This document shows, one piece after another, positions 26,157 through 58,806 of a stretch of 64,000 nucleotides of DNA. Origin of the DNA: Gammaproteobacteria bacterium. GTDB lineage: Bacteria > Pseudomonadota > Gammaproteobacteria > QQUJ01. Each line of letters opens with the position of its first letter. Position 1 is the stretch's first letter. The notes under the pieces are model-generated. The model saw only the letters and a list, made by a program, of their open reading frames with translations, made no database searches and was not told the origin of the DNA. A program made the translations under genes and the position numbers. The stretch is from the NCBI GenBank assembly GCA_050287605.1, contig JBNKCG010000037.1, positions 5,389 through 69,388 on the forward strand, written 5' to 3'.

Positions 26157-26795
26157 TCATCCGCGCTGTTGCGAATGGGAGGCCGGAGGCGGGGCGAACA
26201 GATTCGCTCCGCCTCTCAGCAGGCGATACCCCAACAGCAACGCGAGGATGACGGCGTAGATCAGCGGTTCGCGCAAGTCCGCCTTCACCAGCCACAGAAA
26301 ATGCACGACCCCGCCCACCGCGGTCGCATAGACCAAACGATGCAGCCGTTGCCAACGCTTTCCCCCCAGGCGACGCATCATCGTATTGGTGGATGTCACC
26401 GCCAGGGGAATCAGAAGCACGAAGCTCGTGAATCCGATAGTGATGTAGGGGCGCTCAGCGATGTCGTCGACGATGTGCTCCCAGGCGAAAAACTGATCGA
26501 GCACGAGATAGGTCGCGAAATGCAGCAGCGCATAGAAAAACGCGAACAGCCCGAGCATGCGGCGAAAGCGCATCACCCACGTCCAGCCGCAGAGACTCCT
26601 GAGCGGCGACACCGCCAGCGTGAGAAGCAGCATCCTGAGCGTCCAATCGCCGGTAAAACGGGTGATCGCTTCAATAGGATTGGCGCCCAATCGATCCGCC
26701 AGCCCCTTCCATAGCAACCACCCAAACGGCACCAGCGCCAACGCGAACAGCAGCGGCTTTCCCACCCGGTTGATGCGTTGCTGCATCGTCAGCAT
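26157..26795 (-). CDS. msrQ: Protein-methionine-sulfoxide reductase heme-binding subunit MsrQ (YedZ)
   Basis: 212 aa. Six TM helices with conserved His residues. Located immediately downstream of msrP. Confidence 0.85.
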   Translation of the reverse strand: MLTMQQRINRVGKPLLFALALVPFGWLLWKGLADRLGANPIEAITRFTGDWTLRMLLLTLAVSPLRSLCGWTWVMRFRRMLGLFAFFYALLHFATYLVLDQFFAWEHIVDDIAERPYITIGFTSFVLLIPLAVTSTNTMMRRLGGKRWQRLHRLVYATAVGGVVHFLWLVKADLREPLIYAVILALLLGYRLLRGGANLFAPPPASHSQQRG

Positions 26796-26829
26796 GACGC
26801 GTTGGGCAACAGCGTTTCGCGATCCGGCA

Positions 26830-27780
26830 TCAGAAAAACTTCCTTAAATCCATCGCGCTGTAGAGCGACGCCACCTGCTCGGCGTAGCCGTTGAAGGGCA
26901 ACGTATCGCGTTTGAAGAACTCACCCAGCCGTCGCTCCCGTTTCTGGCTCCAGCGCGGATGATCCACCGCGGGATTGACGTTGGAATAGAACCCGTACTC
27001 ATGCGGAGCCACCCGGTTCCAGGCAGTCTGCGGCTGCTGTTCGCTGAAGCGAATCTTGACGATGGACTTGATACTCTTGAATCCGTATTTCCACGGTACC
27101 ACCAACCGCAACGGTGCTCCGTTCTGATTGGGCAATACCTCGCCGTACATTCCCACCGCCACAAACGCCAGCGGATGCATCGCCTCATCGATGCGCAGCC
27201 CCTCGCGATACGGCCAGTCGAGCACCGACCGCAGCTGACCCGGCATCTGCTTGGGATCGAACAGGGTTTCGAACTCGACGTACTTGGCCGCCGAGGTGGG
27301 TCGGAAACGTTTGAGCAGCGTCGCCAGCGGAAACCCCACCCATGGCACCACCATCGACCATGCCTCCACACAGCGGAATCGATAGATACGCTCCTCGTAC
27401 TGCATATTGGCGAGCAAATCGTCGACGGCGAAGCTCCCGGTCGTTTCCGCCTCGCCTTCGACCGTGACGGTCCACGGCCGTGTTTTCAGCAGGTGCGCCA
27501 GTTGCACGGGATCGTCTTTGCCGGTACCGAATTCGTAGAAGTTGTTGTAACTGGTGGCGGCGAGTTTCTTGGTCACCTCTTCATCGGTGGAATACGCGGG
27601 ATTGGGCGTGAACTCCAGCGCCGCCCCTTGCGCCTCCGCGGCGAGCAGCAGCGCGGGTGCCGGCATCAGGGTGCCAATGGCGGCCAACGCCGAGGTGCGC
27701 AGGAATTCCCGCCGGGCGGCATACACGTCGGGTGGCGTGATCTCAGAGGGACTGATGTCGCCAGGGGTCTTTATCAACAT
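26830..27780 (-). CDS. msrP: Protein-methionine-sulfoxide reductase catalytic subunit MsrP (YedY, molybdopterin)
   Basis: Twin-arginine signal ([16 protein letters not shown]). Sulfite-oxidase-family Mo domain. 34-nt gap to msrQ. Confidence 0.9.
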
Positions 27781-47200: not shown

Positions 47201-47476
47201 GCGCGACAGCGAATAGATGTGCTTGACCCCCTCGATCTCCGAGAGCACCTGCTCCAGCGGCGTGGTGACCAAGTGCTCAACCTCGTCGGCTGCAGCACCC
47301 GGGAATGGGACGAACACGTTGGCGAGGGTGACGTTGATCTGCGGCTCTTCCTCGCGCGGCGTGACCAATACCGCAAACAGCCCCAGCAACAGCCCCACCA
47401 AGGCCAGCAGCGGGGTAATCTCGCTGTGCAGGAAAGCGCGCGCGACGCGCCCCGAGATGCCCAGATTCCCGCTCAC
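44249..47476 (-). CDS. RND efflux transporter permease (AcrB/HAE family)
   Basis: 1075 aa. 12 TM segments and two large periplasmic loops. N-terminal GISGRVARAFLHSEITPLLAL. Confidence 0.92.
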   Translation of the reverse strand: MSGNLGISGRVARAFLHSEITPLLALVGLLLGLFAVLVTPREEEPQINVTLANVFVPFPGAAADEVEHLVTTPLEQVLSEIEGVKHIYSLSRPGQAVLSIQFVVGEDRTRSIVRLYNAIYSNQDWLPANLGVGQPIIKPVGIDDVPIVAGTLWTDDPNRGADDLLRVAHAIEAELKRVPGTRDIDSIGGPDRVVHVEFDPQRMAGLNVSLDDLRQALGGANRSAESGALVADDREITVQAGQFLSTPLEVARLIVGMHGDAPVYLEDVAEVTLGPDQPEQYVWFGTGPAAAAKGIAEQGTFPAVSIAVAKKPGTNAVTIADQVIQRFEALRGTFIPEGIHATVTRNYGATADDKAKTLIKKLIFATASVVLLVLFTLGRREAVVVGSAVVITLAATLFASWAWGFTLNRVSLFALIFSIGILVDDAIVVVENIHRHWAMGDKSLIEAIPIAVDEVGGPTILATFTVIAALLPMAFVTGLMGPYMSPIPINASAGMLISLAVAFVVTPWFTHRMLRHQAHSHNAHGEEEQPQLYGLFQRLVGPFLDAEKGRRRRRLLALAMVVLIALSGGMAVVEWVVLKMLPFDNKSEFQVVVDMPEGTAVERTAAVLTELGAEIAKVPEVTDFQAYVGTASPISFNGLVRQYYLRRGANVGDIQVNLVDKSQRHRKSHEIALAVRGPLAAIGERMGANVKVVEVPPGPPVMSPLVAEVYGPEYSGQVAVARELRKRFSATPDVVDVDDSIETAAPKWVLRVDRQRAAHLGIAQQDVVAAASAALGGEDVTYLHDTKAKYPIPVRLEFPVADKAALASLLDLRLRSRSGALVPLGEVVEVVSGQREQVVYHKDLLPVVFVTGDLAGKLDSPLYGMFSIYADLMQDPIEGVGLLPQHLIAQPDNPYRYSVKWDGEWQVTYETFRDMGIAYSVGLVLIYLLVVAQFRSYLVPLIIMAPIPLTVIGVLPGHALLGAQFTATSMIGMIALAGIIVRNSILLVDFVNQELARGVEFAEAVIRAGAVRARPIVLTALAAMLGAFFILDDPIFNGLAIALIFGILVSTLLTLVVIPIMYYAAMQRSYVGDGE

Positions 47477-48519
47477 CGAGCCGCCCTTCCCTGCTTGAGC
47501 ACCAGCGCCGCTTCCACCGGGTCCAGCGCCACGCGCTCGTTCTCCTGCAGACCGGCCAGGACCTCAATCTGGTCATCCGGTCCCGGCGCGCCGACCCGGA
47601 TCTGGCGCAGGGAGACCGCGCCGTCGTCAGCCACCACGTAGGCAGCGGTCAGCTCACTGCGGCGCACCACCGCCGAGCGCGGGATCAGCAGCGTGCGCCG
47701 CTCGCCCGTCGGCACCTCGACCTTCACCAACATGCCCGGCTGCAGTCCCTCGATGCGCGGCGGCAGCTCCACGCGTACCTGCACCGTGTGGGTGGCGGGA
47801 TCGGCGAAAGGGAACACCGTGATCTGCGGCCCGGGCACCGCGAGCGGCGTGCCGTCGGGCAGCAGGACGATGACACCCAGCTCACGATTGAGGTGAGCGA
47901 CCACGCGCTGCGGCAGTGCGGCGGTGACGCGCAGCTGATCCAGCGACAACCCGGTCATCAACGGCTGGCCCACGGTGACCGATTCGCCCACCTCCACCAT
48001 GCGCTTGACCACGATCCCGGCGTAGGGGGCACGCACCTCGGTATATCCCAACTGCTCCTCGGCGCGCTGCACACCCGCCGTAGCCGAATCGACTCGCGCC
48101 TTGGCGGCCTGCAGATCGGCCTTGGCTCGGTCCAGAGCGGACTTGGCCACCAGCTTGCGCGCGTAGATCTGCTCGACGCGTTCGAATTCGGTCTGCGCCT
48201 CGCTGAACCGGGCTTCGGCCTCACGCAGGGCAGCCTTTGCCGACTCGCTCTGCGCGCGCTGCTCGGTGTCCTTGAGACGGATGATCACCTTGCCGCGCGG
48301 CACGTAGTCGTGCACGTCGAAGTTGATGGCGACGATGCGCCCGCCGATCTGAGCCGACACCGTGGCCTGATTGACCGCTTCGACGGTGGCATCGAAGGTA
48401 CGCTGCTCCGGCAGCGTCTGGTAGGCCAGCGTGGCGGTCTGCAGCTCGGCCGCGCCCGCCAGCACGCTCCAGGCCAGCGTGACGGGGAGAATCAACCAAC
48501 GTTGGAAGGGGCTCTGCAT
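47473..48519 (-). CDS. RND efflux periplasmic adaptor (membrane fusion protein)
   Basis: Signal/anchor, coiled-coil hairpin, lipoyl and beta-barrel blocks (YTEVRAPYAGIV). 4-nt overlap with the RND gene. Confidence 0.9.
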   Translation of the reverse strand: MQSPFQRWLILPVTLAWSVLAGAAELQTATLAYQTLPEQRTFDATVEAVNQATVSAQIGGRIVAINFDVHDYVPRGKVIIRLKDTEQRAQSESAKAALREAEARFSEAQTEFERVEQIYARKLVAKSALDRAKADLQAAKARVDSATAGVQRAEEQLGYTEVRAPYAGIVVKRMVEVGESVTVGQPLMTGLSLDQLRVTAALPQRVVAHLNRELGVIVLLPDGTPLAVPGPQITVFPFADPATHTVQVRVELPPRIEGLQPGMLVKVEVPTGERRTLLIPRSAVVRRSELTAAYVVADDGAVSLRQIRVGAPGPDDQIEVLAGLQENERVALDPVEAALVLKQGRAAR

Positions 48520-48561
48520 CGTTCGGCTCTCTCAAGGTCTGAGTAAAGTGGACGCCATTCT

Positions 48562-48581
48562 ATATTAGAATCTTCTAATAT
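48562..48581. promoter_or_regulatory. Perfect AT-rich palindrome (candidate operator) upstream of the RND efflux operon
   Basis: atattagaa-tc-ttctaatat: 9-bp perfect arms with a 2-bp centre, 43 bp upstream of the adaptor-gene ATG. A striking AT island in GC-rich DNA. Confidence 0.4.
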
Positions 48582-48602
48582 GCCAATATCCCACCCACCC
48601 CG

Positions 48603-49250
48603 TCACGCCAGCAGGGCCGCCACGATACCGGTGATGAAGATCCCGTCGAAAGTGCCCGCCCCGCCGATGGAGGCCATCGGCGCCCCCATGTGGCGGATGT
48701 CGTCCAGGCGCAGCAGATCGGCCCCGATCAGCACCCCCAGCGTTCCGCAGACGTATGCCAGCGGGGCGCTGGCGCCGGGATCCAACGTCACCCCCACCGC
48801 CGCCGCGGCCAGCGGCGCAACGAACAGCGGCAGGCCGATCCCCATCCCCGGGATGGGACGGCTCACCCAGCGGCAGAGCAGCGCCACCAGCGCGCTACCG
48901 ACCACGGCCGCACCGCCATGGATTTCAGTGTTGCGCAGCAGATAAAGGCTGAAAAATACCGGAATGACACAGCCCCCGGCATTGACCATTAGCAATGTCC
49001 GGCCGGGGCGGAAATGGGGCGGCAACAGGAGCGAACGGCGTCGGTACCGGTCCAGCAGACCCGGCGACGGCGGATCCGAGCGGATATAGAACAGCGGCAG
49101 ATTCACCACACTGCCCACCAGCGAGCTCAGCAGCAGCAGAAAGCCGGCGTCGGCCGAGAGGCCCAGCTTGTCGAAGGCGACGCTCAGCAGTCCGATCTGG
49201 ACCATGAACACGACCGCGACCACCAGCATCACCAGGAAGACAAGCGGCAT
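48603..49250 (-). CDS. DUF1614-family integral membrane protein
   Basis: MPLVFLVMLVVAVVFMVQIGLLSVAFDKLGLS is a typical DUF1614 N-terminus (from memory), with several TM helices. Confidence 0.6.
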   Translation of the reverse strand: MPLVFLVMLVVAVVFMVQIGLLSVAFDKLGLSADAGFLLLLSSLVGSVVNLPLFYIRSDPPSPGLLDRYRRRSLLLPPHFRPGRTLLMVNAGGCVIPVFFSLYLLRNTEIHGGAAVVGSALVALLCRWVSRPIPGMGIGLPLFVAPLAAAAVGVTLDPGASAPLAYVCGTLGVLIGADLLRLDDIRHMGAPMASIGGAGTFDGIFITGIVAALLA

Positions 49251-49300
49251 CGGGAGTGAGCATCCTTTCTGTTCGCGGGAGCGGCGCCCGCGCACCCCGC

Positions 49301-51421
49301 TTAGGCGCCGCGGGGTTGTCGTCGCGTCAGGGTAACGAATTCGGCCGCGCCGAGCGGTTTGCTGAAATGATAGCCCTGATACGCGTCGCAGCCATGCGTG
49401 CGAAGAAAGTTCAGTTGTCCCTCCTGCTCCACACCCTCCGCGATCACGTGATGGCCAAAGCGCTGCGCCATGGCGAGGATGGTCTCGACGATGGTCGCAT
49501 CGTTGATATCGCTCAAAATACCGTCGACGAAAGAACGGTCGATCTTCAACACCTCAACGGGCAAGCGTTTGAGATACATCAGCGACGAATAGCCGGTGCC
49601 GAAGTCGTCGATGGCGAAGCGAATGCCCAACTCGATCAGGCACTCCATCTTGAACGCCGCATCCTCGACGTCGTGAACCAGCACGCCTTCGGTGAGTTCC
49701 AGCTCCAGAAAGCGCGCGTCGACGCCGCTGTCAGCGATGATGGTCGCCGCGCGCTCGACGAAATCCCACTGGCGGAACTGCTTGGGGCTGACGTTCACCG
49801 CCAGGCGGAATCCCGGCCCGATGATCCCCTCTTCGCTCCAGCGGCGAATCGAGCGGCACGCTTCGCGCAGCACCCAGTCGCCCACCGCCACGATGATGCC
49901 GGTCTCTTCGGCGACGGGGACGAAGTCGCCCGGGGACACCATGCCCCGGCGCGGGTGGCGCCAGCGCAACAGCGCCTCCGCGCCGATGATCCGGTTGCTC
50001 CCGATCTCAACCTGGGGTTGGAAGTGGAGCATCAGTTCGCCGCGTCCCAGGGCGTAGTGCAGATCGGTCTCGATCTCCAGGCGGCGTGTGGCCGCCAGCT
50101 GCATGCCGGGCAGGTAGAAATGAAACTCGCCGCTGCCCGCCCCTTTGGCCCGGTAAAGCGCGGTGTCGGCCTGTTTCAGCACTTCGTCCGCACCGGAGAC
50201 GCTCATGGGAAACAGCGCGATGCCGACGCCGGCGGTGGTGCGCAACTCGTGATGGCCGACGCGAAACGGCCGGTCGATGGCCGCCAGCACCTTTTCGGCC
50301 ACCGCTTGCGCGTTCACCGCCGCGCGCTCCGCCGCTGCCGGCAGTTCGGCCAGCAACACCACGAATTCGTCGCCGCCCACCCGCGCCACGGTATCGGTGG
50401 CGCGCAGCGTGTTGCGCAAGCAGACGGCAACCGCCTGCAGCAGCGCATCGCCCATGGCCGGTCCCAGCGAATCGTTGATGGTCTTGAAGCGGTCGAGATC
50501 GATCAACAGCACCGCCCCCATGTGGTCGTGGCGCTCGGCGTTGGCCAATGCCTGCTGCAAGCGGTCACGCAGCAACCTACGGTTGGGCAGCTGGGTGAGT
50601 GGATCGAAGTAGGCCGATTGGCGCAGCTCACCGTCGCGCCGTTCCAGCATACCGAAACCGGTAACCAGCCCCGCCATGCCCAGCAGCCACAGGAATCCGT
50701 GTCCCAGAGTGAGCGCCGCCTCGCGCCCGGGCGGCCAGGCGCCGCCCGGCTCCCCCACGGGAACGCTGACGCTGACACCGCCCAGCACCTCGCCCACCTG
50801 CAGGCCCTGCCCGCCGTGACAGACCAGGCAGCCCTGCTCCACATGGCGCGGCCGCATCAGCCGATAGCGCGGCTCAGCGCCCGCCGTCACCGCTTCGCCC
50901 ACCTCGTCGACGCCACGCTGAAAACGCAGCAACGCGCGCTGCTCCCAGCCATCGGGCCGATGGTCTGGGCTGAGCGGGCGCAGGCTGGCGACGTGAACCG
51001 CGGCCCCGCCGCTGAGGTGCGGAGATTCGCCGCCGTGAAGCAGGCGCATGAAATACGAAGCGTTGGGCAGCGTGAGCGCAACAACCGGGTCGGTGGTGAC
51101 GTCGCGCTCGCGAAGAGGGTGCAGATCGGCGTCAGGAGCGGCGCCCTCCCCGGCACCGGCGTAGACCCCGCCCAGTCCCGCGACCAAGTCTCGGGCAGCC
51201 AGATCCCGCTCCAACAGCACCGCGGCCTGAGCGCGCGCCTGCGCGACCAGACCTTGTCGGTTGAGGTGTAGGTTCCAGCTCAGGGAAGCGACCACGGCGC
51301 CGGTCCACACGACCACCAGGAACCCACGCCAAAGGGACAGGCGTGACGCCTGCGCGGGATCCTTGTGGGCGGGCGTACGGCGGTCGGAGTGAGGGATGCG
51401 GCTGCGGTCGCCGTCCGTCAT
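49301..51421 (-). CDS. Diguanylate cyclase/phosphodiesterase (GGDEF-EAL) with a periplasmic heme-c-type (CXXCH) sensor domain
   Basis: TM, then a periplasmic about 200-aa domain containing CLVCHGG (CXXCH), resembling the Tll0287/DUF3365 heme-PAS sensor. A second TM precedes GGDEF (RVGGDEF) and EAL (EALLRW, DDFGTGYSS). Confidence 0.9.
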   Translation of the reverse strand: MTDGDRSRIPHSDRRTPAHKDPAQASRLSLWRGFLVVVWTGAVVASLSWNLHLNRQGLVAQARAQAAVLLERDLAARDLVAGLGGVYAGAGEGAAPDADLHPLRERDVTTDPVVALTLPNASYFMRLLHGGESPHLSGGAAVHVASLRPLSPDHRPDGWEQRALLRFQRGVDEVGEAVTAGAEPRYRLMRPRHVEQGCLVCHGGQGLQVGEVLGGVSVSVPVGEPGGAWPPGREAALTLGHGFLWLLGMAGLVTGFGMLERRDGELRQSAYFDPLTQLPNRRLLRDRLQQALANAERHDHMGAVLLIDLDRFKTINDSLGPAMGDALLQAVAVCLRNTLRATDTVARVGGDEFVVLLAELPAAAERAAVNAQAVAEKVLAAIDRPFRVGHHELRTTAGVGIALFPMSVSGADEVLKQADTALYRAKGAGSGEFHFYLPGMQLAATRRLEIETDLHYALGRGELMLHFQPQVEIGSNRIIGAEALLRWRHPRRGMVSPGDFVPVAEETGIIVAVGDWVLREACRSIRRWSEEGIIGPGFRLAVNVSPKQFRQWDFVERAATIIADSGVDARFLELELTEGVLVHDVEDAAFKMECLIELGIRFAIDDFGTGYSSLMYLKRLPVEVLKIDRSFVDGILSDINDATIVETILAMAQRFGHHVIAEGVEQEGQLNFLRTHGCDAYQGYHFSKPLGAAEFVTLTRRQPRGA

Positions 51422-51628
51422 TTATTGTTATCCCCTGCTTTCGTCACGCGGATCGATCAACGGCATACCCCGCAGTGGCCTCGCTCCCGGCCAACGCGGT
51501 CTGTCAAACGTGTCAAAGGGGATATCGGCCACCGCGGCCCAAACATTTAGGGCGCGGACGTCGGGAGTATTTCCACAGTGAAACGCGGGCGAGAGATAAC
51601 CCGCAATGCGGTCAGGCGAGCGGCGGGA

Positions 51629-51946
51629 TCACCCGCAATTGCAGGCGCGCAGAAATTGACCGGGAAGCAGCAGATTGAAGCGCGCGATACCCTCTTCTTC
51701 GCGAACGCGGTTGAAGACCTCGCAGCTCATGCAGGAGAGGCGGCTGGCAGCGAACGAACCCTGGACGATGCCGTCGCTGTAGGTGCCAGCGATCGCCCAG
51801 CAGATGCGACCACCGTTGACACCCCCGTTGAGACCGTCGGCGTCGCAGGCGGCCGCGGTGGCGCAGACCCCCAGCAGCTCTGCCGCCGCACCGCCGGGTT
51901 CACGTCCGCAGCCCTTGATCTGCCAACAGTTGAGTCGTTCGCTCAT
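51629..51946 (-). CDS. Small cysteine/tryptophan-rich protein with two CW motifs (two-CW-like metal/redox-binding domain)
   Basis: 105 aa with 9 Cys: NCWQIKGCG...CATAAAC...RICWAIAGT...CMSCEVF...ACNCG. Strong RBS ggaggagg 7 nt upstream of the ATG. Composition is unlike antisense-artefact ORFs. Confidence 0.6.
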   Translation of the reverse strand: MSERLNCWQIKGCGREPGGAAAELLGVCATAAACDADGLNGGVNGGRICWAIAGTYSDGIVQGSFAASRLSCMSCEVFNRVREEEGIARFNLLLPGQFLRACNCG

Positions 51947-52174
51947 GACACCCCTCCTCCGGTAGGCGCGGTATCCGTCCCCTGTGTTTATACCTCGTTA
52001 TGGATAGAGGGCGGACTCGAACGTAGTAGGCGAGATTCCGGCGCCGGTTGCAAACACAATATTGAATCGGGATATAGAGGGGAGTTATTGACGATTATCA
52101 GGAACAGCTCCGAAGGCGGTCCGGCGGCCCGCACAGGACGACGCTGCCCGCGCGCAATGGGCCGGCAAGTCTAG

Positions 52175-53482
52175 CTACCAGTAGCTCAGGGCGTTGGCGT
52201 AGAGCTCCGCGAGCACGGTCTGGTCCACGGGGCGCGGCGCGTTCTTCAACAGCCGCTGCTGGGCGTAGGCCCCCTCCACCAGTCCGCCGATATCGCCCGC
52301 ATCGTAGCCCACACCGCCAACGCCGTTAGGCATCGCGGTGGCACGCATCAACCCCTCCAGGTGCCGGGCCACCAACTCACCGGCATCCTCCGGGGCCACG
52401 TCGCGCACCTCGGCGCCCAGCAGCTGAGCCCCTTCCAGGTGACGTTCGGGACAGGCGCTGCCGGTAAAGCGGAACGCCGCGGGGGCGTTGACGATGACCG
52501 ACATACCGTGGGGGCAGATGGGTTCGTCCGCAGGATAGCCCTCGGGCTGGAACCCCTTCACCAGACCCGCCACCGAGTAGGACATGCCGTGGGGGATGTG
52601 GACTCCGGCATTGCCGAACGCCAGGCCGGCCAGGGTGGCGGCGAACATCATGCCGTCGCGCGCCTCGTGGTCGGCGGCGTCGGCCACCGCGCGCACCAGA
52701 AAGCGCCCCGCCAACCGCAGCGCCTCGCGGCAGCCGATGTCGCTCCAGGGGTTGGCCCCCTGGCTCATGGGCCGCAGGTGCGGCTGGTCGGGTCGCGCGC
52801 GCTGCGTGTAGGGGATGGCGGTGAAGCTCTCCAGGGCGTGGCTCAACACGTCAAAGCCGCTGGCCGCCACCACATTGGCCGGCAGCGTATAGGTGGTAGT
52901 GGGATCGATGACCGCCCGGGTGGGGCGTAGCGCGCGGTGGGCGATGCCGGTCTTGGCGCGCATCGCCAGCAGATCGAATACCGCGATGCCGGTGCATTCG
53001 CTGCCGGTACCGGAGGTGGTCGGGCAGGCGATGTGCGGCTTCAACGGCCCCGGCGGGGCGATGCCGTTGCCGATGGGCGGGTTGACGTAGTCCATGAACT
53101 CGGCCGGCCAGGTGCTGTAGAGGTTGGCCGCCTTGCAGGTGTCGATGACCGAGCCACCGCCCACGGAGACGAAACCGTCAAAATCGCCTTCGCTGGCAAA
53201 GCGTGCCGCGGCGGCGAACGAGCGGTCCGTAGGCTCGACCCGCACCTCGTCGTAGACCGCGACGTCCACCCCGGCCGCGCGCAGCGACTCCTGCACGCGC
53301 GCCACGTGGCCTTGCGCCACAACCCCGGCGTCGGTGTAGAGCGCCACCCGCCGGAGTCCCAGGACGCGCGCATCGTCGCCCACTTCGCGCAGGGCGCCGG
53401 GACCGAATTTGATCGCCGAGGCGTCGACGCTGAACACCTCATCGCCGTGCTCGGTCAGCGCGTAGTAGTGACAGCAACCCAT
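52175..53482 (-). CDS. Iron-containing alcohol dehydrogenase family protein (hydroxyacid-oxoacid transhydrogenase-like)
   Basis: 435 aa. [14 protein letters not shown](P)-binding motif and His-rich metal site ([14 protein letters not shown]...HG). Confidence 0.85.
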
Positions 53483-53523
53483 GAAACCACCCTCCTCCCG
53501 GCCGTGCGCACGGATCAGTCTGT

Positions 53524-53794
53524 TTAGGGCCTGTTAACACTAGTCGCATAGGCCCTGCTGAGTCTCATTTTTTGTCCAGCAAGGCAGAATGAGCGAGGTG
53601 TAGCCCCGCTACATGAGCGAATGATAACGCCGCTGGGCGGAAAAGGAGGCTCAGCCCTTCGGGTTGCACCTGAAAACACGCCACTCGGCGTTGCTCGTCG
53701 CTCATTTGGAGTTACCAAACTTCGCTCCTCGCGCCTGGATTGGCGCGTTTTCAGGCACAACAGGACCTATGCGACTAGTGCTAACAGGCCCTAA
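53524..53794. mobile_element. MITE-like miniature inverted-repeat element (about 271 bp) with 29-bp terminal inverted repeats
   Basis: Left end ttagggcctgttaacactagtcgcatagg. Right end cctatgcgactagtgctaacaggccctaa (28 of 29 complementary). Nested internal inverted repeats (cctgaaaacacgcc / ggcgcgttttcagg). No ORF. The PilZ TAG stop lies within the right end. Confidence 0.5.
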
Positions 53795-54072
53795 GTCGCC
53801 TCTTGCGGAGGCTCCTCTACGAAGCGTAGCCCGATTCCGGTAGGTTCCAGGCGCACCACCTCCATGGTCACCACCGGCAGATCATCCACCGGGCCCTGGA
53901 CCTGGCCCTGCACCACGGTGCCCACGGGCGGGATAGGATCGCCGCTGGTGATGAGGAAGACTCCGCCATCCGACACGTCGCGGGTGGTGAAGATCACCGA
54001 ACCGATGGAGTCGTGCCAGACGCGTACCTTGATGCTGACCGCCGTGCGTAAGTGTTGTCGTTTTTCGTGCAT
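53791..54072 (-). CDS. PilZ-domain protein (c-di-GMP binding), start at MHEKRQHL
   Basis: 93 aa. RxxxR motif (RQHLR) and D-x-S-x-x-G motif (DVSDGG). Confidence 0.75.
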   Translation of the reverse strand: MHEKRQHLRTAVSIKVRVWHDSIGSVIFTTRDVSDGGVFLITSGDPIPPVGTVVQGQVQGPVDDLPVVTMEVVRLEPTGIGLRFVEEPPQEAT

Positions 54073-54152
54073 AGCGACGCCGCTGAAGTGATGTTGTCGG
54101 GTGGGCACACGATACCGCGCCCCGCGCCAAGAGTATCAGCCCGGCAAGGATT

Positions 54153-55265
54153 TTACCCCCCCGGTAGCGTGGGGAAACCGGGTCGCGGCCCGATATCGAA
54201 GCGGTCGCGCTCGTACAGCGGGCGGCTCTGCACGTAGGCGAGCAACAGCATCACCAGCGATTCCAGCGCGTCGCAATGGATGCGCTCGTAACCGTGCGAA
54301 GCGTCGATGCCGAAGCAGATGAGAGAAGTGCGCAGGTCGTTACCCGCCTCCACGGCGGCCGCGCTATCGGAACGGTAGTAGCGGAACACGTCACGCTGGT
54401 GGGGAATGGCGAACTCCTTGCACAACTCCAGCAGCCGGTGGGTGAGGTGATAGTCGAACGGACCGGTCATGTCGGCCATAGCGACGGTGACGCCGAATTC
54501 GCTGGAGTTCTGTCCCGGTGCAGTGGTGCCGTTATCAATAGTCACCATCTCGGCGACGTCCTGGTGCAGAACCGCCGAGGCGCCCGACCCCACCTCCTCG
54601 GAGATGGTGAACAGCAGATGACAATCCACCGGCAGCACGATGCCCCCCTCGCGCACCGCCTTGGCGAAGGCGAACACCACCGCCGCACCCGCTTTGTCGT
54701 CCAGGTGGCGCGAGTTGATGAAGCCGTTGTGGTGAAACTCGGGGATGGGGTCGACGGCGATGATATCGCCCACGTGAAACCCCAGCCGCATCAGGTCGGC
54801 GCGGCTGGCGCACATCTCGTCCACGCGCACCTCGACGTTGTCCCACGCCACCTTCTGGCTGTCGACCTCGGGTCCGAAGGTGTGTCCCGACGCCTTGAGC
54901 GGCAGCAGCGTGCCGCGGTAGGGGCGCTCGTCGGTAAACACCGTGACGCGGGCACCTTCGGCAAAGCGCGCGTTCCAGTGACCGATGGGCACCACCTCCA
55001 AGCGTCCGTTCTCCTTGAGCCCCTTGACCATGGCGCCCAGGGTGTCGAGGTGGGCGACAATGGCGCGATCGGGGCTGGAGCGTTCGCCGGCAATGGTGGC
55101 GCGGATGGCGCCGCGCCGCGTCAACTCGAACGGAATCTCCAGCCGCTCCAACTCATCGCAAGCCAGGTGCACGATACGGTCGGTATAGCCGGTGGGGCTG
55201 GGCGTCTGCAGCAGACGGGCGAGGATGTCCAGCAGATAGCCGCGATCGATGGCAGGGAGGTTCAT
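54153..55265 (-). CDS. M42-family peptidase of the NAGGN (N-acetylglutaminylglutamine amide) osmoprotectant system
   Basis: 370 aa. M42/FrvX-type metal ligands (IVAHLD, DDKAG, ISEEVG, HCD). Third gene of the conserved asnO-ngg-M42 trio. Its ATG overlaps the ngg stop (ATGA). Confidence 0.8.
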   Translation of the reverse strand: MNLPAIDRGYLLDILARLLQTPSPTGYTDRIVHLACDELERLEIPFELTRRGAIRATIAGERSSPDRAIVAHLDTLGAMVKGLKENGRLEVVPIGHWNARFAEGARVTVFTDERPYRGTLLPLKASGHTFGPEVDSQKVAWDNVEVRVDEMCASRADLMRLGFHVGDIIAVDPIPEFHHNGFINSRHLDDKAGAAVVFAFAKAVREGGIVLPVDCHLLFTISEEVGSGASAVLHQDVAEMVTIDNGTTAPGQNSSEFGVTVAMADMTGPFDYHLTHRLLELCKEFAIPHQRDVFRYYRSDSAAAVEAGNDLRTSLICFGIDASHGYERIHCDALESLVMLLLAYVQSRPLYERDRFDIGPRPGFPTLPGG

Positions 55266-57013
55266 GCGCGGTATTCCCGATGCAGCGTGCGTGGGGCGGT
55301 TTGCGGAAACAGCAGGTCGACGAAGCGCTGCGCCGTCGGCTGCGGTTCGTGATTGGCCAGCCCGGGCCGCTCGTTGGCTTCGATGATCACGTACTGCTCG
55401 CCGGCCACGTCGGGTACCAGGAAATCGAGCCCCACCACGGGGATGTCCAGCGCCCGCGCCGCCGCTTCCGCCGCCTCGCGCAGTCGAGGATGCAGGCGCG
55501 CCGTCACGTCGTGGATGGTGCCGCCGGTATGCAGGTTGGCGGTCTTGCGCACCGCCAGCTCGCGATTCACCTCCAGTACGTCGTCGAGCTGGTAGCCGCT
55601 GGCACGCACGCAGCGTTCCGTCTCGCCGTCGAGCGGAATGCGGCTCTCGCCGCCGGTCGCCGCCGCGCGTCGCCGGCTCTGCTTTTCGATGAGCTGGCGG
55701 ATGGTGTGGCGGCCCGTGCCGGTGACCGCAGCAGGGCGACGCACGGCCGCCGCCACCACCTCGTATCCGATCACGATGATGCGCAGATCCTGGCCCTCCA
55801 CATAGCGCTCCAGCAGTACCGTATCGCAGTGGCGACGCGCCAGCTCCACCGCCTGCTCCAGCTCCGGAGCCGCGCGAACGTCGACGCTAATCCCCATCCC
55901 CTGCTCGCCGCGCGCCGGCTTGACCACCAGTCGCTGGTACTTGTCGAGAAACGCCTCGCTCTCTGCGCGCGACGCGGCGATCTGCTGCGGCAGAACCGAC
56001 AGCCCCGCCTCCGCCAGCAGGCGGCGTGTCACGCGCTTGTTGTCGCAGCGGCTCATGGCCACCGCCGTGGTGAGCTCCGACAGCGATTCGCGGCAGACGA
56101 TGGTGCGGCCGCCCAGCGAGAGGCTGAAGTAGTTCTCTTCTGTGTCGATCACCTCCACCGCGATGCCGCGGCGGCGCGCCTCGTTGACGATGATGGTGGC
56201 GTAGGGGTTGAGTTGCTCTTCCGGTTTGGGAGCGATGTAGAGCGGTTCGTTGAAGGCGTTTTTGTGCTTGAGCGCAAACACCGGCACGCGCACGAAACCG
56301 AGCTTCTCGTAGAGGGCGATGGCGTGACGGTTGTCGTGCATCACGGAGAGATCGAGGAAGGTACGGCCGCGAGTGAGGTAGGACTCGGCGAGAAAACGCA
56401 CCATCGCCTCACCGACGCCGGGGATTCCACACTGCGGGTCCACCGCCAGACACCACAGACTGGCGCCGTTCTCCGGATCGTTAAACGCTTGGCGGTGATC
56501 GACACCGGTAACCGTGCCGACGATCTGCCCGCTGCCCACCTCTTCCGCCACCAGATAAGCGAGCGTGCGCGAATCGCGTTTCCGCCACAAAAAGCCCGGC
56601 TCCACCTGCACCATTCTGCGCTTGGCGTAGAGCGCGTTGATCGCGGCCGCATCATCGTGCGACAGCATGCGGCGTACGATGAACCCCTTGGGCACTTCGT
56701 CGCTGGGCTGATAGCGGTCCAGCCACAATCGGTAGGTGTGCGAGGGATCGAGGAACAGCTCCTGCGGCGCCATGGCGATCACCACATGGGGATCGCGCAG
56801 GTACATGCCGATGTCGCGCCGTCCCGCCTGCTCGGACTGCAGCATGCGCGCCAGCTCCACGTTGCTGGCAAAGGTGTGGGCGAAGACCAACCGTCCCCAA
56901 CCGCAATCGACGGCGATGTTGGACTCGTACTGATCCGCAGCCGGCCCCTGCAGATGGCGCCAATTCTGCACCGAGGGGGCGTTGCGGCGTTCGAAGCGGT
57001 GTTTTTTGACCAT
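55262..57013 (-). CDS. ngg: Bifunctional GNAT acetyltransferase / ATP-grasp (RimK-like) N-acetylglutaminylglutamine synthetase
   Basis: N-terminal GNAT plus a C-terminal ATP-grasp domain. Start chosen at MVKKHRF (GGGAGGG RBS 9 nt upstream). The ORF-track start at 57082 overlaps asnO. Confidence 0.85.
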   Translation of the reverse strand: MVKKHRFERRNAPSVQNWRHLQGPAADQYESNIAVDCGWGRLVFAHTFASNVELARMLQSEQAGRRDIGMYLRDPHVVIAMAPQELFLDPSHTYRLWLDRYQPSDEVPKGFIVRRMLSHDDAAAINALYAKRRMVQVEPGFLWRKRDSRTLAYLVAEEVGSGQIVGTVTGVDHRQAFNDPENGASLWCLAVDPQCGIPGVGEAMVRFLAESYLTRGRTFLDLSVMHDNRHAIALYEKLGFVRVPVFALKHKNAFNEPLYIAPKPEEQLNPYATIIVNEARRRGIAVEVIDTEENYFSLSLGGRTIVCRESLSELTTAVAMSRCDNKRVTRRLLAEAGLSVLPQQIAASRAESEAFLDKYQRLVVKPARGEQGMGISVDVRAAPELEQAVELARRHCDTVLLERYVEGQDLRIIVIGYEVVAAAVRRPAAVTGTGRHTIRQLIEKQSRRRAAATGGESRIPLDGETERCVRASGYQLDDVLEVNRELAVRKTANLHTGGTIHDVTARLHPRLREAAEAAARALDIPVVGLDFLVPDVAGEQYVIIEANERPGLANHEPQPTAQRFVDLLFPQTAPRTLHREYRA

Positions 57014-57030
57014 CTGAGGCATCCCTCCCG

Positions 57031-58806
57031 CTAACCGATCTCCTGCCCCTGCAACCACAGCTCCAGCAGTGCCACCTGCCACAGCTTGGAACCGCGCAGG
57101 GGCGTGATGTGTTGTTCGGGCGCCGCGAACAGCTCGTCAATGTAAGCGGCGTTGAACAACCCGCGCTCGCGCGCCGCCCGGTTGTCCAGCGTGTCGCGTA
57201 CGTACTCAAGAAACGACCCCTGCAGGTACTTCAGAGCGGGCACCGGAAAATACCCCTTGGGACGGTCGATCACTTCGTGAGGAATGAAATTGCGCGCCAC
57301 CTCTTTGAGAACGTGCTTGCCGCCGTGGGCCACCTTGTGTTCGGCAGGCATGCGCGCAGCCAGCTCCACCAGCTCGTGATCGAGAAACGGCACGCGCGCC
57401 TCCAAGCCCCACGCCATGGTCTGGCTGTCGACGCGCTTGACGGGGTCGTCCACCAGCATGACGGTGGTATCGAGGCGCAGCGCCTTGTCGATGGGATCGA
57501 CGGCGTCATCGCTGGCGAACTGCTCGTGCAAAAAGCGCCGGCTGTGATCGTCGCCACGCCACGTTTCACCCACCGCGCGGCAGTACTCGGCGTGATCGCG
57601 GTCGAAGAACACCCGCGCGTAGTCGCCCTCAGGATCGGCACTCTCCATCAGCGGCGGATACCAGTGATAGCCGGCGAAGACCTCGTCGGCGCCCTGTCCG
57701 CTCTGTACCACCTTGACGTGCTTGGCCACCTCGCGCGACAGCAGATAGAAGCCGATATTGTCGTGGCTCACCATCGGCTCGGACATGGCACGGATGCAGT
57801 GCGGCAGCTGCTCCAGGGTCTCGCGTGCGTCGACGCGGATCTGATGATGGCGGGTCGAAAAACGCTCCGCCACCAAGTCGGAATACCGGAACTCGTCGCC
57901 CGCCTCGTCATTGACGGATTCGAAGCCGACGGAAAAGGTGTTGAGCCCCTGCTGCCCCTGTTCGGCCAGCAGCCCGACGATGAGGCTGGAATCCACCCCG
58001 CCGGAAAGCAGCACGCCCACCGGCACGTCGGCCACCAAGCGCCGCTTGACCGCCGTCATCAGCGCATCGGCGAGCAGCGCCTGCCACTCGCCGACACTAC
58101 GCCGCCGATCGGCTTCGCTGCGTTCGAAACGCAGGCTCCAATAGCGGTGCTCGGTAGTGCGCCCATCCGGTTCGACGCGCATCAGGGTAGCCGGCGGCAG
58201 CTTGCGCGCACCGCGCAGTATCGTCAGCGGTGCCGGCACCACCGAGTGGAAGCTCATGTAGTGATGCAGCGCCACCGGGTCGACGGCGGTGTCGAGTTCA
58301 CCGCCCCGCAGCAGCGCCGGCAGCGTCGAGGCGAACCGCAGCGCACCGTCTCGCAGGCAATAGTAGAGCGGCTTGATGCCTAGCCGGTCGCGCCCCAACA
58401 ATACCCGTCCCGAGTCGCGCTCCCACACGGCAAAGGCAAACATGCCGTGAAAGCGCTGCACGAACGCTTCGCCCCAGGCGTGATAGGCCTTCAACACCAC
58501 CTCGGTGTCGCCATTGGAGAAGAAACGGTAGCCCTTTCCCTCCAGTTCACGGCGCAGCTCGGGGTAGTTGTAAATCATGCCGTTGAACACGATCCCCAGC
58601 CCCAACTCGTTGTCCACCATGGGCTGCTGGGCGTGCTCGCTCAGATCGACGATCTTCAGCCGCCGATGCCCGAACGCCAACCGCCCCTGGTGAAACTGAC
58701 CGCCGGCATCGGGACCGCGCGGCGCCAGCGCCGCGCTCATGGCGGCAACCGCGCCGTTATCGGCCAGTTGTTGATCGAAGCGAATCTCTCCTGCTATTCC
58801 ACACAC
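57031..58806 (-). CDS. asnO: Asparagine-synthetase-family glutamine amidotransferase AsnO (NAGGN pathway)
   Basis: MCGIAG N-terminal nucleophile Cys. SGGVDSS PP-loop. 591 aa. Confidence 0.9.
   Translation of the reverse strand: MCGIAGEIRFDQQLADNGAVAAMSAALAPRGPDAGGQFHQGRLAFGHRRLKIVDLSEHAQQPMVDNELGLGIVFNGMIYNYPELRRELEGKGYRFFSNGDTEVVLKAYHAWGEAFVQRFHGMFAFAVWERDSGRVLLGRDRLGIKPLYYCLRDGALRFASTLPALLRGGELDTAVDPVALHHYMSFHSVVPAPLTILRGARKLPPATLMRVEPDGRTTEHRYWSLRFERSEADRRRSVGEWQALLADALMTAVKRRLVADVPVGVLLSGGVDSSLIVGLLAEQGQQGLNTFSVGFESVNDEAGDEFRYSDLVAERFSTRHHQIRVDARETLEQLPHCIRAMSEPMVSHDNIGFYLLSREVAKHVKVVQSGQGADEVFAGYHWYPPLMESADPEGDYARVFFDRDHAEYCRAVGETWRGDDHSRRFLHEQFASDDAVDPIDKALRLDTTVMLVDDPVKRVDSQTMAWGLEARVPFLDHELVELAARMPAEHKVAHGGKHVLKEVARNFIPHEVIDRPKGYFPVPALKYLQGSFLEYVRDTLDNRAARERGLFNAAYIDELFAAPEQHITPLRGSKLWQVALLELWLQGQEIG

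Follow-up and report, generated by a model that had tools for sequence, protein, structure and literature searches.

A GGDEF–EAL protein with a predicted periplasmic heme-c Cache sensor in a gammaproteobacterial genome

A stretch of 64,000 nucleotides (hereafter, the window) of contig JBNKCG010000037.1, from a Gammaproteobacteria bacterium of the QQUJ01 lineage (assembly GCA_050287605.1, positions 5,389–69,388), carries a complete gene for a protein of 706 amino acids (aa). In this protein, which we call the query, a first transmembrane segment (TM1), an sCache_heme sensor domain, a second transmembrane segment (TM2), a GGDEF diguanylate cyclase domain and an EAL phosphodiesterase domain follow one another (Table 1). 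A gene for a DUF1614 membrane protein lies directly downstream, and a PilZ gene stands further upstream beside an osmoprotectant cluster. An initial annotation of this DNA had described a GGDEF–EAL protein with a periplasmic heme-c domain, implying redox or gas control of cyclic di-GMP (c-di-GMP). Here we show that the protein belongs to the sCache_heme (Tll0287-like) family. We consider it likely that it works as a two-TM periplasmic heme-c Cache sensor, which modulates a bifunctional GGDEF–EAL enzyme through a continuous TM2 helix.

Architecture of the sensor protein

The gene starts with an ATG that follows a Shine–Dalgarno-like AGGGGA motif by about 10 nucleotides, and its G+C content at third codon positions (GC3, 0.82) is usual for genes of the window (64% GC). 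Hydropathy analysis (Kyte–Doolittle, 19-residue window) reveals two hydrophobic segments, and the AlphaFold model predicts a long helix at each of them. In the TM1 region, W39 and W49 are kept in at least 95% of the family. The first 29 residues hold six lysines and arginines, and this basic N terminus is consistent with an N-in topology that leaves residues ~52–234 in the periplasm. Together, the two flanking hydrophobic helices and the basic N terminus predict an extracytoplasmic location for the heme domain. Hydropathy and AlphaFold thus bear out the two membrane segments of the initial annotation, with ~183 aa between them (given there as about 200 aa). The translation likewise contains the single CLVCHGG motif that had been reported for the periplasmic domain, and C198 and C201, both within it, are the only cysteines of the periplasmic segment. 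At the other end of the domain, the AlphaFold2 (AF2) model continues TM2 as an unbroken helix through a 12-residue linker (258–269) into the GGDEF domain (model residues 204–242, which correspond to residues 231–269 of the protein). Pfam finds no domain over residues 221–270, and hence neither HAMP nor PAS between TM2 and GGDEF.

Both output domains are intact by their motifs, and cyclase and phosphodiesterase activities are predicted for them. The GGDEF active site reads RVGGDEF, with an RxxD I-site (RATD, residues 340–343) five residues upstream; the whole RATD-x5-GGDEF stretch is RATDTVARVGGDEF (residues 340–353). All motifs of the EAL domain are present, namely EALLR (482), NVSP (543), ELELTE (573), DDFGTGYSS (605), KIDRS (626), EGVE (662) and QGY (682), so that Pfam and the motifs agree with the intact RVGGDEF, EALLRW and DDFGTGYSS signatures first noted. 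Named GGDEF–EAL equivalogs of NCBIfam stay below their cutoffs (DibA, 477 of 980 bits; DosP, 317 of 857; PRK10060, 357 of 782), and these matches align to residues ~259–699 only.

Table 1 Features of the sensor gene and of the surrounding window
Feature	Position in window	Strand	Basis
TM1–sCache_heme–TM2–GGDEF–EAL gene, complete	49301..51421	−	706 aa; open reading frame (ORF) listing, Pfam, full-length orthologues of 43–61% identity
TM1, residues 31–51, WRGFLVVVWTGAVVASLSWNL	51269..51331	−	Hydropathy 1.60 (residues 33–51); AlphaFold helix
sCache_heme sensor domain (Tll0287-like/DUF3365, PF11845), residues 58–221	50759..51250	−	Pfam, AF2, Foldseek, phmmer, hhalign
NASYFMRLLH, residues 120–129, conserved helix and predicted lining of the distal heme pocket	51035..51064	−	Conservation and extrapolated mapping
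CLVCH heme-c attachment motif	50816..50830	−	C198/C201 predicted thioether sites, H202 predicted proximal ligand
TM2, residues 235–257	50651..50719	−	Hydropathy 1.62 (residues 235–253); AF2 helix
GGDEF diguanylate cyclase domain, residues 270–430	50132..50614	−	Pfam PF00990, E 1.2e-45
SLGPAMGD, residues 319–326	50477–50491 as listed (residues 311–315 region)	−	Orthologue alignment
EAL phosphodiesterase domain, residues 453–689	49355..50065	−	Pfam PF00563, E 7.3e-71
DUF1614 membrane protein gene	48603..49295	−	Pfam, E 1.9e-50
PilZ gene	53791..54108	−	Pfam, E 9e-11; RxxxR and DxSxxG intact
N-acetylglutaminylglutamine amide (NAGGN) osmoprotectant cluster: amidotransferase, Ngg synthetase, M42 peptidase	54153–58806	−	NCBIfam
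Two-CW domain protein gene	51629–51946	−	NF045718, 89.9 bits
MsrPQ gene pair	26157–27780	−	NF003767, 474 bits; NF003831, 196 bits
ORF, 508 aa	24495–26021	+	Gene-like, GC3 0.72
ORF, 122 aa	3551–3919	+	Gene-like, GC3 0.76

The periplasmic domain belongs to the sCache_heme family

The segment between the membrane helices matches PF11845 (DUF3365) with 53.1 bits, where the cutoff is 24.1 (E 6e-14), covering profile positions 4–144 of 144. Its AF2 model, built from a 21-sequence alignment (predicted local distance difference test score 87.1; predicted template-modelling score 0.79), consists of a long N-terminal helix and a β-sheet core, with CLVCH on a short helix (residues 196–205) that sits between strand 183–193 and the last strand, 212–221. 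When the model was compared with the PDB by Foldseek, Tll0287 (5B82) was the top and sole significant match (E 8.9e-5, probability 1.00, target-normalised template-modelling score 0.57), followed by the Geobacter heme-c sensors 3B42 (E 3.3e-3, probability 1.00) and 3B47 (E 0.053) and then by the periplasmic Cache-type sensors LuxQ, CitA, DcuS and KinD. The same three heme-c structures again ranked first in a profile search of the PDB, at marginal E values of 0.16–0.41; a single-sequence phmmer search of PDB sequences with the sensor domain gave no relevant match. Aligned by hhalign, the query subfamily and the stand-alone Tll0287-type proteins are homologous with a probability of 96.5% (E 1e-9) over residues 137–222 only.

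These results bear on the initial proposal of a heme-PAS fold of the Tll0287/DUF3365 type. The family was right, as the PF11845 match and the top Foldseek hit agree; the DUF3365 scan suggested at the time as a check is positive, and no search assigned the region to a non-heme fold. The fold itself has since been reclassified, because a systematic analysis of DUF3365/Tll0287 proteins (February 2026), which found CXXCH to be 99% conserved, placed them in the Cache superfamily rather than with PAS domains and named them sCache_heme (10.64898/2026.02.01.703092).

A word-indexed homologue search with the sensor domain returned one match, so an exhaustive search was needed, and we ran phmmer with residues 28–268 as the query against 1.84 billion cluster representatives. 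It recovered 4707 family representatives at E ≤ 1e-3, of which 761 reached E ≤ 1e-30. Among the best 150 of the 4707, to which all family conservation counts refer (151 with the query), the sensor match is N-terminal, at residues ~20–250 of multidomain proteins 290–1400 aa long. PF11845 is found in all 68 proteins of a set made up of the query and the 67 relatives closest to it, together with a histidine-kinase ATPase domain in 42, PAS in ~37, GGDEF in 9 and EAL in 2. The two EAL carriers are the query and one other protein, P0002; a GGDEF–EAL output is therefore a minority within the query's subfamily.

Heme site and distal ligand

The CXXCH motif occurs in 150 of the 150 closest representatives, with C198, C201 and H202 invariant, and in all six orthologue lineages, the query counted. 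Its invariance across relatives and orthologues shows that the motif did not arise by chance, and the conservation on which the initial annotation had staked the heme assignment is complete in all orthologues examined. By analogy with the biochemistry of the family, heme c would be covalently attached at this site.

Beyond the attachment motif, Y87, R126 and R187 are essentially invariant among relatives, and H143 and M189 are kept in 140 and 145 of the 151 sequences. Y123, which is near-invariant or invariant like R126, lies in the conserved helix NASYFMRLLH, which by prediction borders the distal heme pocket (Table 1). Members of the GGDEF–EAL clade share the motif N-S-S-Y-F-x-R-L-x-H at residues 120–129, in which F124 and H129 are invariant and residue 125 varies (M/V/T). 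Position 124 is Met in 127 of the 151 sequences and some other hydrophobic residue in the remainder; all members of the GGDEF–EAL clade have Phe there. This pattern fits a pocket-lining residue or a variable ligation.

Tll0287 of Thermosynechococcus elongatus belongs to the same Pfam family, is the closest structure and is homologous to the query over residues 137–222, including CXXCH. It is, however, a soluble, stand-alone, redox-type protein with axial ligation by Cys68 and His145, whereas the query is membrane-anchored, has enzymatic outputs and carries Phe124 at the position extrapolated for Cys68. That position (residue ~124) comes from an ungapped extension of a profile alignment that covers residues 137–222 only. 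In the stand-alone Tll0287-type proteins, the Cys of a conserved 'VC(M/A/R)PVG' motif precedes 'LKYRNP' by 23 residues, just as Cys68 precedes L91 in Tll0287; the query lacks this motif. Because there is no third Cys in the periplasmic segment, Cys/His ligation of the Tll0287 type cannot apply to the query, and we expect a distal site that is open or weakly liganded. Met125 was also considered as a conserved distal ligand and rejected, given the M/V/T variation at this position among orthologues. H129, H143 and M189 are candidate distal ligands by their conservation.

Orthologues and sequence drift

Orthologues were identified by a clade-specific scan of metagenome contigs and by tblastn. They comprise L007 (49% identity over 680 aa; contig GC 54%), L008, identical to L009 and L011 (52% over 662 aa; 67%), and L005, which is P0002 (44% over 695 aa; 62%), all intact; L010 (43%; contig GC 39%), cut by the contig end; and the pseudogene of L002–L004 (61%; contig GC 57%). 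A scan of another contig collection gave no orthologue, its only match being an unrelated GGDEF protein in an Acidobacteriaceae metagenome-assembled genome; the query protein itself is absent from the contig collection. In these five further lineages (39–67% GC) the CXXCH, GGDEF and EAL motifs are all kept, and in every orthologue TM2 is joined straight to GGDEF, without HAMP or PAS.

The pseudogene (L002:2131–4155; the same DNA is found in L003, L004 and L006, from Joint Genome Institute samples 3300027557, 3300003817 and 3300003829) has an in-frame TGA at the codon for W245 in TM2 and a TAG at a Gln codon of the EAL domain ('FQPQ'), and its TM1 is lost or degraded. Recoding of these stops was rejected as an explanation, since two different codons are involved and TM1 has also gone.

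Several substitutions at conserved positions distinguish the query. N97D, G113V, T145A, N154H and Y207L are private to it, and W79L, P121A and A122S are shared by the clade. From these alignments, we read the query as belonging to a clade that has diverged, with a degree of additional drift of its own, rather than as a case of clear decay.

Genomic context

The DUF1614 gene begins 5 bp downstream of the sensor gene (~50 bp if an internal ATG is used) and is probably co-transcribed with it. The L002–L004 contigs, three assemblies of identical DNA, are syntenic with the window (PilZ, iron-containing alcohol dehydrogenase (Fe-ADH), sensor, DUF1614, membrane fusion protein, resistance–nodulation–division transporter and LysR genes), and their neighbour genes are intact and 64–89% identical to those of the window, compared with 61% for the sensor. 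There the sensor pseudogene lies beside an intact DUF1614 gene, which therefore persists without a sensor. Four other orthologue contexts lack DUF1614 next to the sensor and have nothing in common with the window or with one another. We thus rejected DUF1614 as a functional partner, as it is adjacent only in the lineage whose sensor is a pseudogene and absent in the four other contexts.

The PilZ gene lies 2.37 kb upstream of the sensor gene, with two further genes between them. The PilZ gene starts 44 bp past the stop of the M42 peptidase gene, and 308 bp separate it from the Fe-ADH gene; it forms the tail of the NAGGN cluster, whose equivalogs score above cutoff (TIGR03104, 1013 bits against 570; TIGR03103, 892 against 569; TIGR03106, 566 against 398). 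This arrangement leaves PilZ unsupported as a dedicated receptor of the sensor enzyme, and that role was rejected. The positions of the DUF1614 and PilZ genes had been given correctly in the initial annotation, as Pfam confirms; the functional links it hinted at find no support in the comparative context. As a separate observation, the NAGGN cluster is complete with PilZ beside it, and PilZ is kept in the syntenic relative, which may point to a link between c-di-GMP and osmoprotectant synthesis.

Upstream of the sensor gene, at a distance of 207 bp, lies a gene for a small, Cys-rich two-CW domain protein; the syntenic relative has a 226-bp gap in its place, and the literature searched does not mention the domain. 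The MsrPQ pair, a periplasmic methionine-sulfoxide reductase, provides periplasmic repair of oxidative damage in the same window, with no evidence of a link to the sensor. The two gene-like ORFs of Table 1 match no Pfam or NCBIfam family, and the rest of the window is ordinary core chromosome (leuCDB-asd-fimV-truA-trpBA-accD, purL, msrPQ and aspS). No Rfam family reaches its gathering threshold across positions 1–64000 (no transfer RNA, riboswitch or small RNA family), so there is no c-di-GMP riboswitch in the window. A scan of positions 47400–54300 for promoters and terminators gave nothing beyond chance.

Discussion

Heme-based gas input to GGDEF/EAL enzymes is familiar from H-NOX proteins with HaCE-type GGDEF–EAL partners, from NosP-associated kinases and from the O2-sensing DosC and DosP, and in this respect these systems resemble what we propose here. 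Their H-NOX, NosP/FIST, globin and PAS sensors are cytoplasmic and bind heme b non-covalently; Pfam detects none of these domains in the query. To our knowledge, all control of c-di-GMP by heme that has been described relies on such cytoplasmic heme-b sensors (H-NOX, NosP, globin and PAS).

In the mechanism that we propose, the protein would insert N-in, with the TM1–TM2 loop exported. The cytochrome c maturation machinery would attach heme to C198 and C201, with H202 as the proximal ligand and a distal site that is open or occupied by a weak, exchangeable ligand. Binding of a small ligand to the heme, nitric oxide (NO) being the likeliest, or a redox-linked change of coordination would alter the Cache domain, and this change would pass along the continuous TM2 helix straight into the GGDEF domain, shifting the balance between a diguanylate cyclase under I-site product feedback and the EAL phosphodiesterase and, with it, the c-di-GMP level. 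The scheme builds on the domain identities, intact motifs, fold, topology and family-wide conservation described above; heme attachment, the identity of the signal and its transmission through TM2 we infer from the biochemistry of the family, and any direction of the output would likewise be inferred.

That biochemistry differs between two groups of sCache_heme proteins. About half of the family is stand-alone ('Cluster 1'), Cys/His-ligated and redox-like, and the members of 'Cluster 2' are fused to histidine kinases, methyl-accepting chemotaxis proteins (MCPs), GGDEF/EAL domains or cyclases, with GGDEF/EAL fusions among the frequent architectures (10.64898/2026.02.01.703092). The query combines a signalling output (GGDEF and EAL) with the lack of a distal axial Cys, as Cluster 2 proteins do. 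A Cluster 2 receptor of Pseudomonas azotoformans without the axial Cys releases NO slowly, with a dissociation rate constant of ~6e-4 s-1, does not make a stable complex with O2 and is quickly autoxidised (10.64898/2026.02.01.703092); autoxidation with production of superoxide is seen in the tested sCache_heme proteins (10.64898/2026.02.01.703092; 10.64898/2026.05.25.727664). In this receptor NO binding is relayed across the membrane, and oxidation or reduction alone is less effective (10.64898/2026.05.25.727664, May 2026).

Set side by side from published descriptions, the query and the P. azotoformans receptor, a Cache_heme–HAMP (CHH) protein, share a two-TM topology, a periplasmic Cache fold without a distal Cys, a CXXCH helix inserted before the last strand and a fused cytoplasmic signalling module. 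They differ in that the query carries GGDEF–EAL straight on TM2, whereas CHH has HAMP and a Ser/Thr-kinase partner. Taken together, the biochemistry of members without a distal Cys points to NO or a redox-linked ligand switch rather than to O2, and we regard NO as quite possibly the signal of the query, at somewhat under an even chance. More tentatively, the Phe124 of the GGDEF–EAL clade may go with a five-coordinate heme like that of cytochrome c′, which would make these proteins dedicated periplasmic NO (or sulfide) sensors for cyclase and phosphodiesterase; we consider this reading less likely than not.

The alternative that survives best is that the protein senses redox potential, the ferric or ferrous state of the heme driving a ligand on and off and so controlling c-di-GMP turnover; it would then report periplasmic redox poise or the availability of electron acceptors. 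A switch of this type has been proposed for GSU0582 (3B47) and GSU0935 (3B42) of Geobacter sulfurreducens, in which the distal Met60 binds reduced heme and leaves on oxidation, with midpoints of −156 and −251 mV, and in which NO and CO bind by displacing the distal Met (PMC8396549). Like the query, these are periplasmic heme-c sensors between two TMs with a cytoplasmic output, and they come next after Tll0287 in structural similarity, at places 3 to 5 of the hit list. The Met found at the extrapolated distal position in most of the query's subfamily, the conserved M189 and H143 and the rapid autoxidation of a signalling-type family member also accord with a redox switch. However, the GGDEF–EAL clade has Phe rather than Met at 124, and residue 125 is unconserved. 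The Geobacter domains are distant relatives only, as their profile E values indicate; unlike the query, they have an MCP output reached through HAMP, a shorter domain (~130 aa), domain-swapped dimers and a His/Met or His/water redox-linked switch. Moreover, the output of the tested signalling-type receptor was changed less by oxidation or reduction than by NO (10.64898/2026.05.25.727664). Redox sensing is accordingly a possibility that we take seriously but hold to be doubtful.

It is unlikely that another heme ligand (CO, sulfide or O2) is the signal. For sulfide, polysulfide or CO in particular, one orthologue contig (L005) carries a DsrC gene, a review ties Tll0287 to sulfide metabolism, the Geobacter domains bind CO (PMC8396549), and the authors who described NO relay allow that a different heme ligand may be the real signal (10.64898/2026.05.25.727664). 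The window, however, contains no gene of sulfur oxidation or CO metabolism and the signalling class offers no biochemical precedent, which makes a sensor of this kind improbable.

Several observations weigh against the proposal of a working, NO-responsive sensor. The case for NO comes from a single characterised receptor, whose output (HAMP) is different, and a full-text literature search turned up no characterised protein in which a heme-c sensor is fused to GGDEF/EAL. No cytochrome c maturation (ccm) genes and no genes of N-oxide metabolism lie within the 64-kb window. Sequence alone does not reveal the net balance of cyclase and phosphodiesterase activity or the direction of the response, and the 'GH..GD' motif of the GGDEF domain is GPAMGD in the query only, with His in all five orthologue lineages. 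The query also matches 49 of the 57 columns with a conservation of at least 90%, departing at the eight substitutions listed above, which is 2.4 standard deviations below the family mean of 54.8 ± 2.4. Finally, the closest lineage has lost its sensor by nonsense mutations, and the sensor may thus be dispensable or drifted.

Some of these observations would suit a decaying or signal-blind protein, that is, a drifted sensor, a constitutive c-di-GMP enzyme or an incipient pseudogene. The copy in the closest lineage, with its two stops and lost TM1, stands among intact flanking genes; the sensor gene is less similar between the two lineages than its neighbours are; and the five private substitutions at columns at least 90% conserved are joined by the change of H to P in 'GH..GD'. 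On the other side, the reading frame of the query is open over all 706 codons with a GC3 typical of the window, the heme-binding and catalytic motifs are all kept, and the score of 49/57 is matched by the intact clade-mate P0002 (48/57). That the query no longer functions as a sensor seems improbable to us, and outright decay or signal blindness very improbable. Least probable is an oxygen sensor, a periplasmic analogue of DosC/DosP: this would agree with a heme-linked GGDEF–EAL protein, with the DosP similarity of its GGDEF–EAL module and with DcrA, a heme-c MCP for which O2 or redox sensing has been proposed (PMC8396549), but the DosP match lies far under its cutoff and spans residues 265–695 only, sensor excluded, and the tested sCache_heme proteins form no stable oxy complex, autoxidising and producing superoxide instead.

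Joined to GGDEF/EAL, this sensor has already been catalogued in published work, as a biochemically uncharacterised architecture of a family that received its name in 2026. Taken as genome annotation, the finding is correct but routine, and it opens no question beyond those of the 2026 sCache_heme papers. A periplasmic, covalently bound heme-c sensor on a GGDEF–EAL protein would place in the periplasm the point at which gas or redox state controls decisions on biofilm and motility. If the five-coordinate NO-sensor reading is true, c-di-GMP would have its first extracytoplasmic gas switch based on heme c, and cells could answer NO released by denitrification or by a host while it is still outside the membrane. 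The compact build of the protein, free of HAMP and PAS, makes it and its orthologues sensible choices for a first biochemical study of such a sensor.

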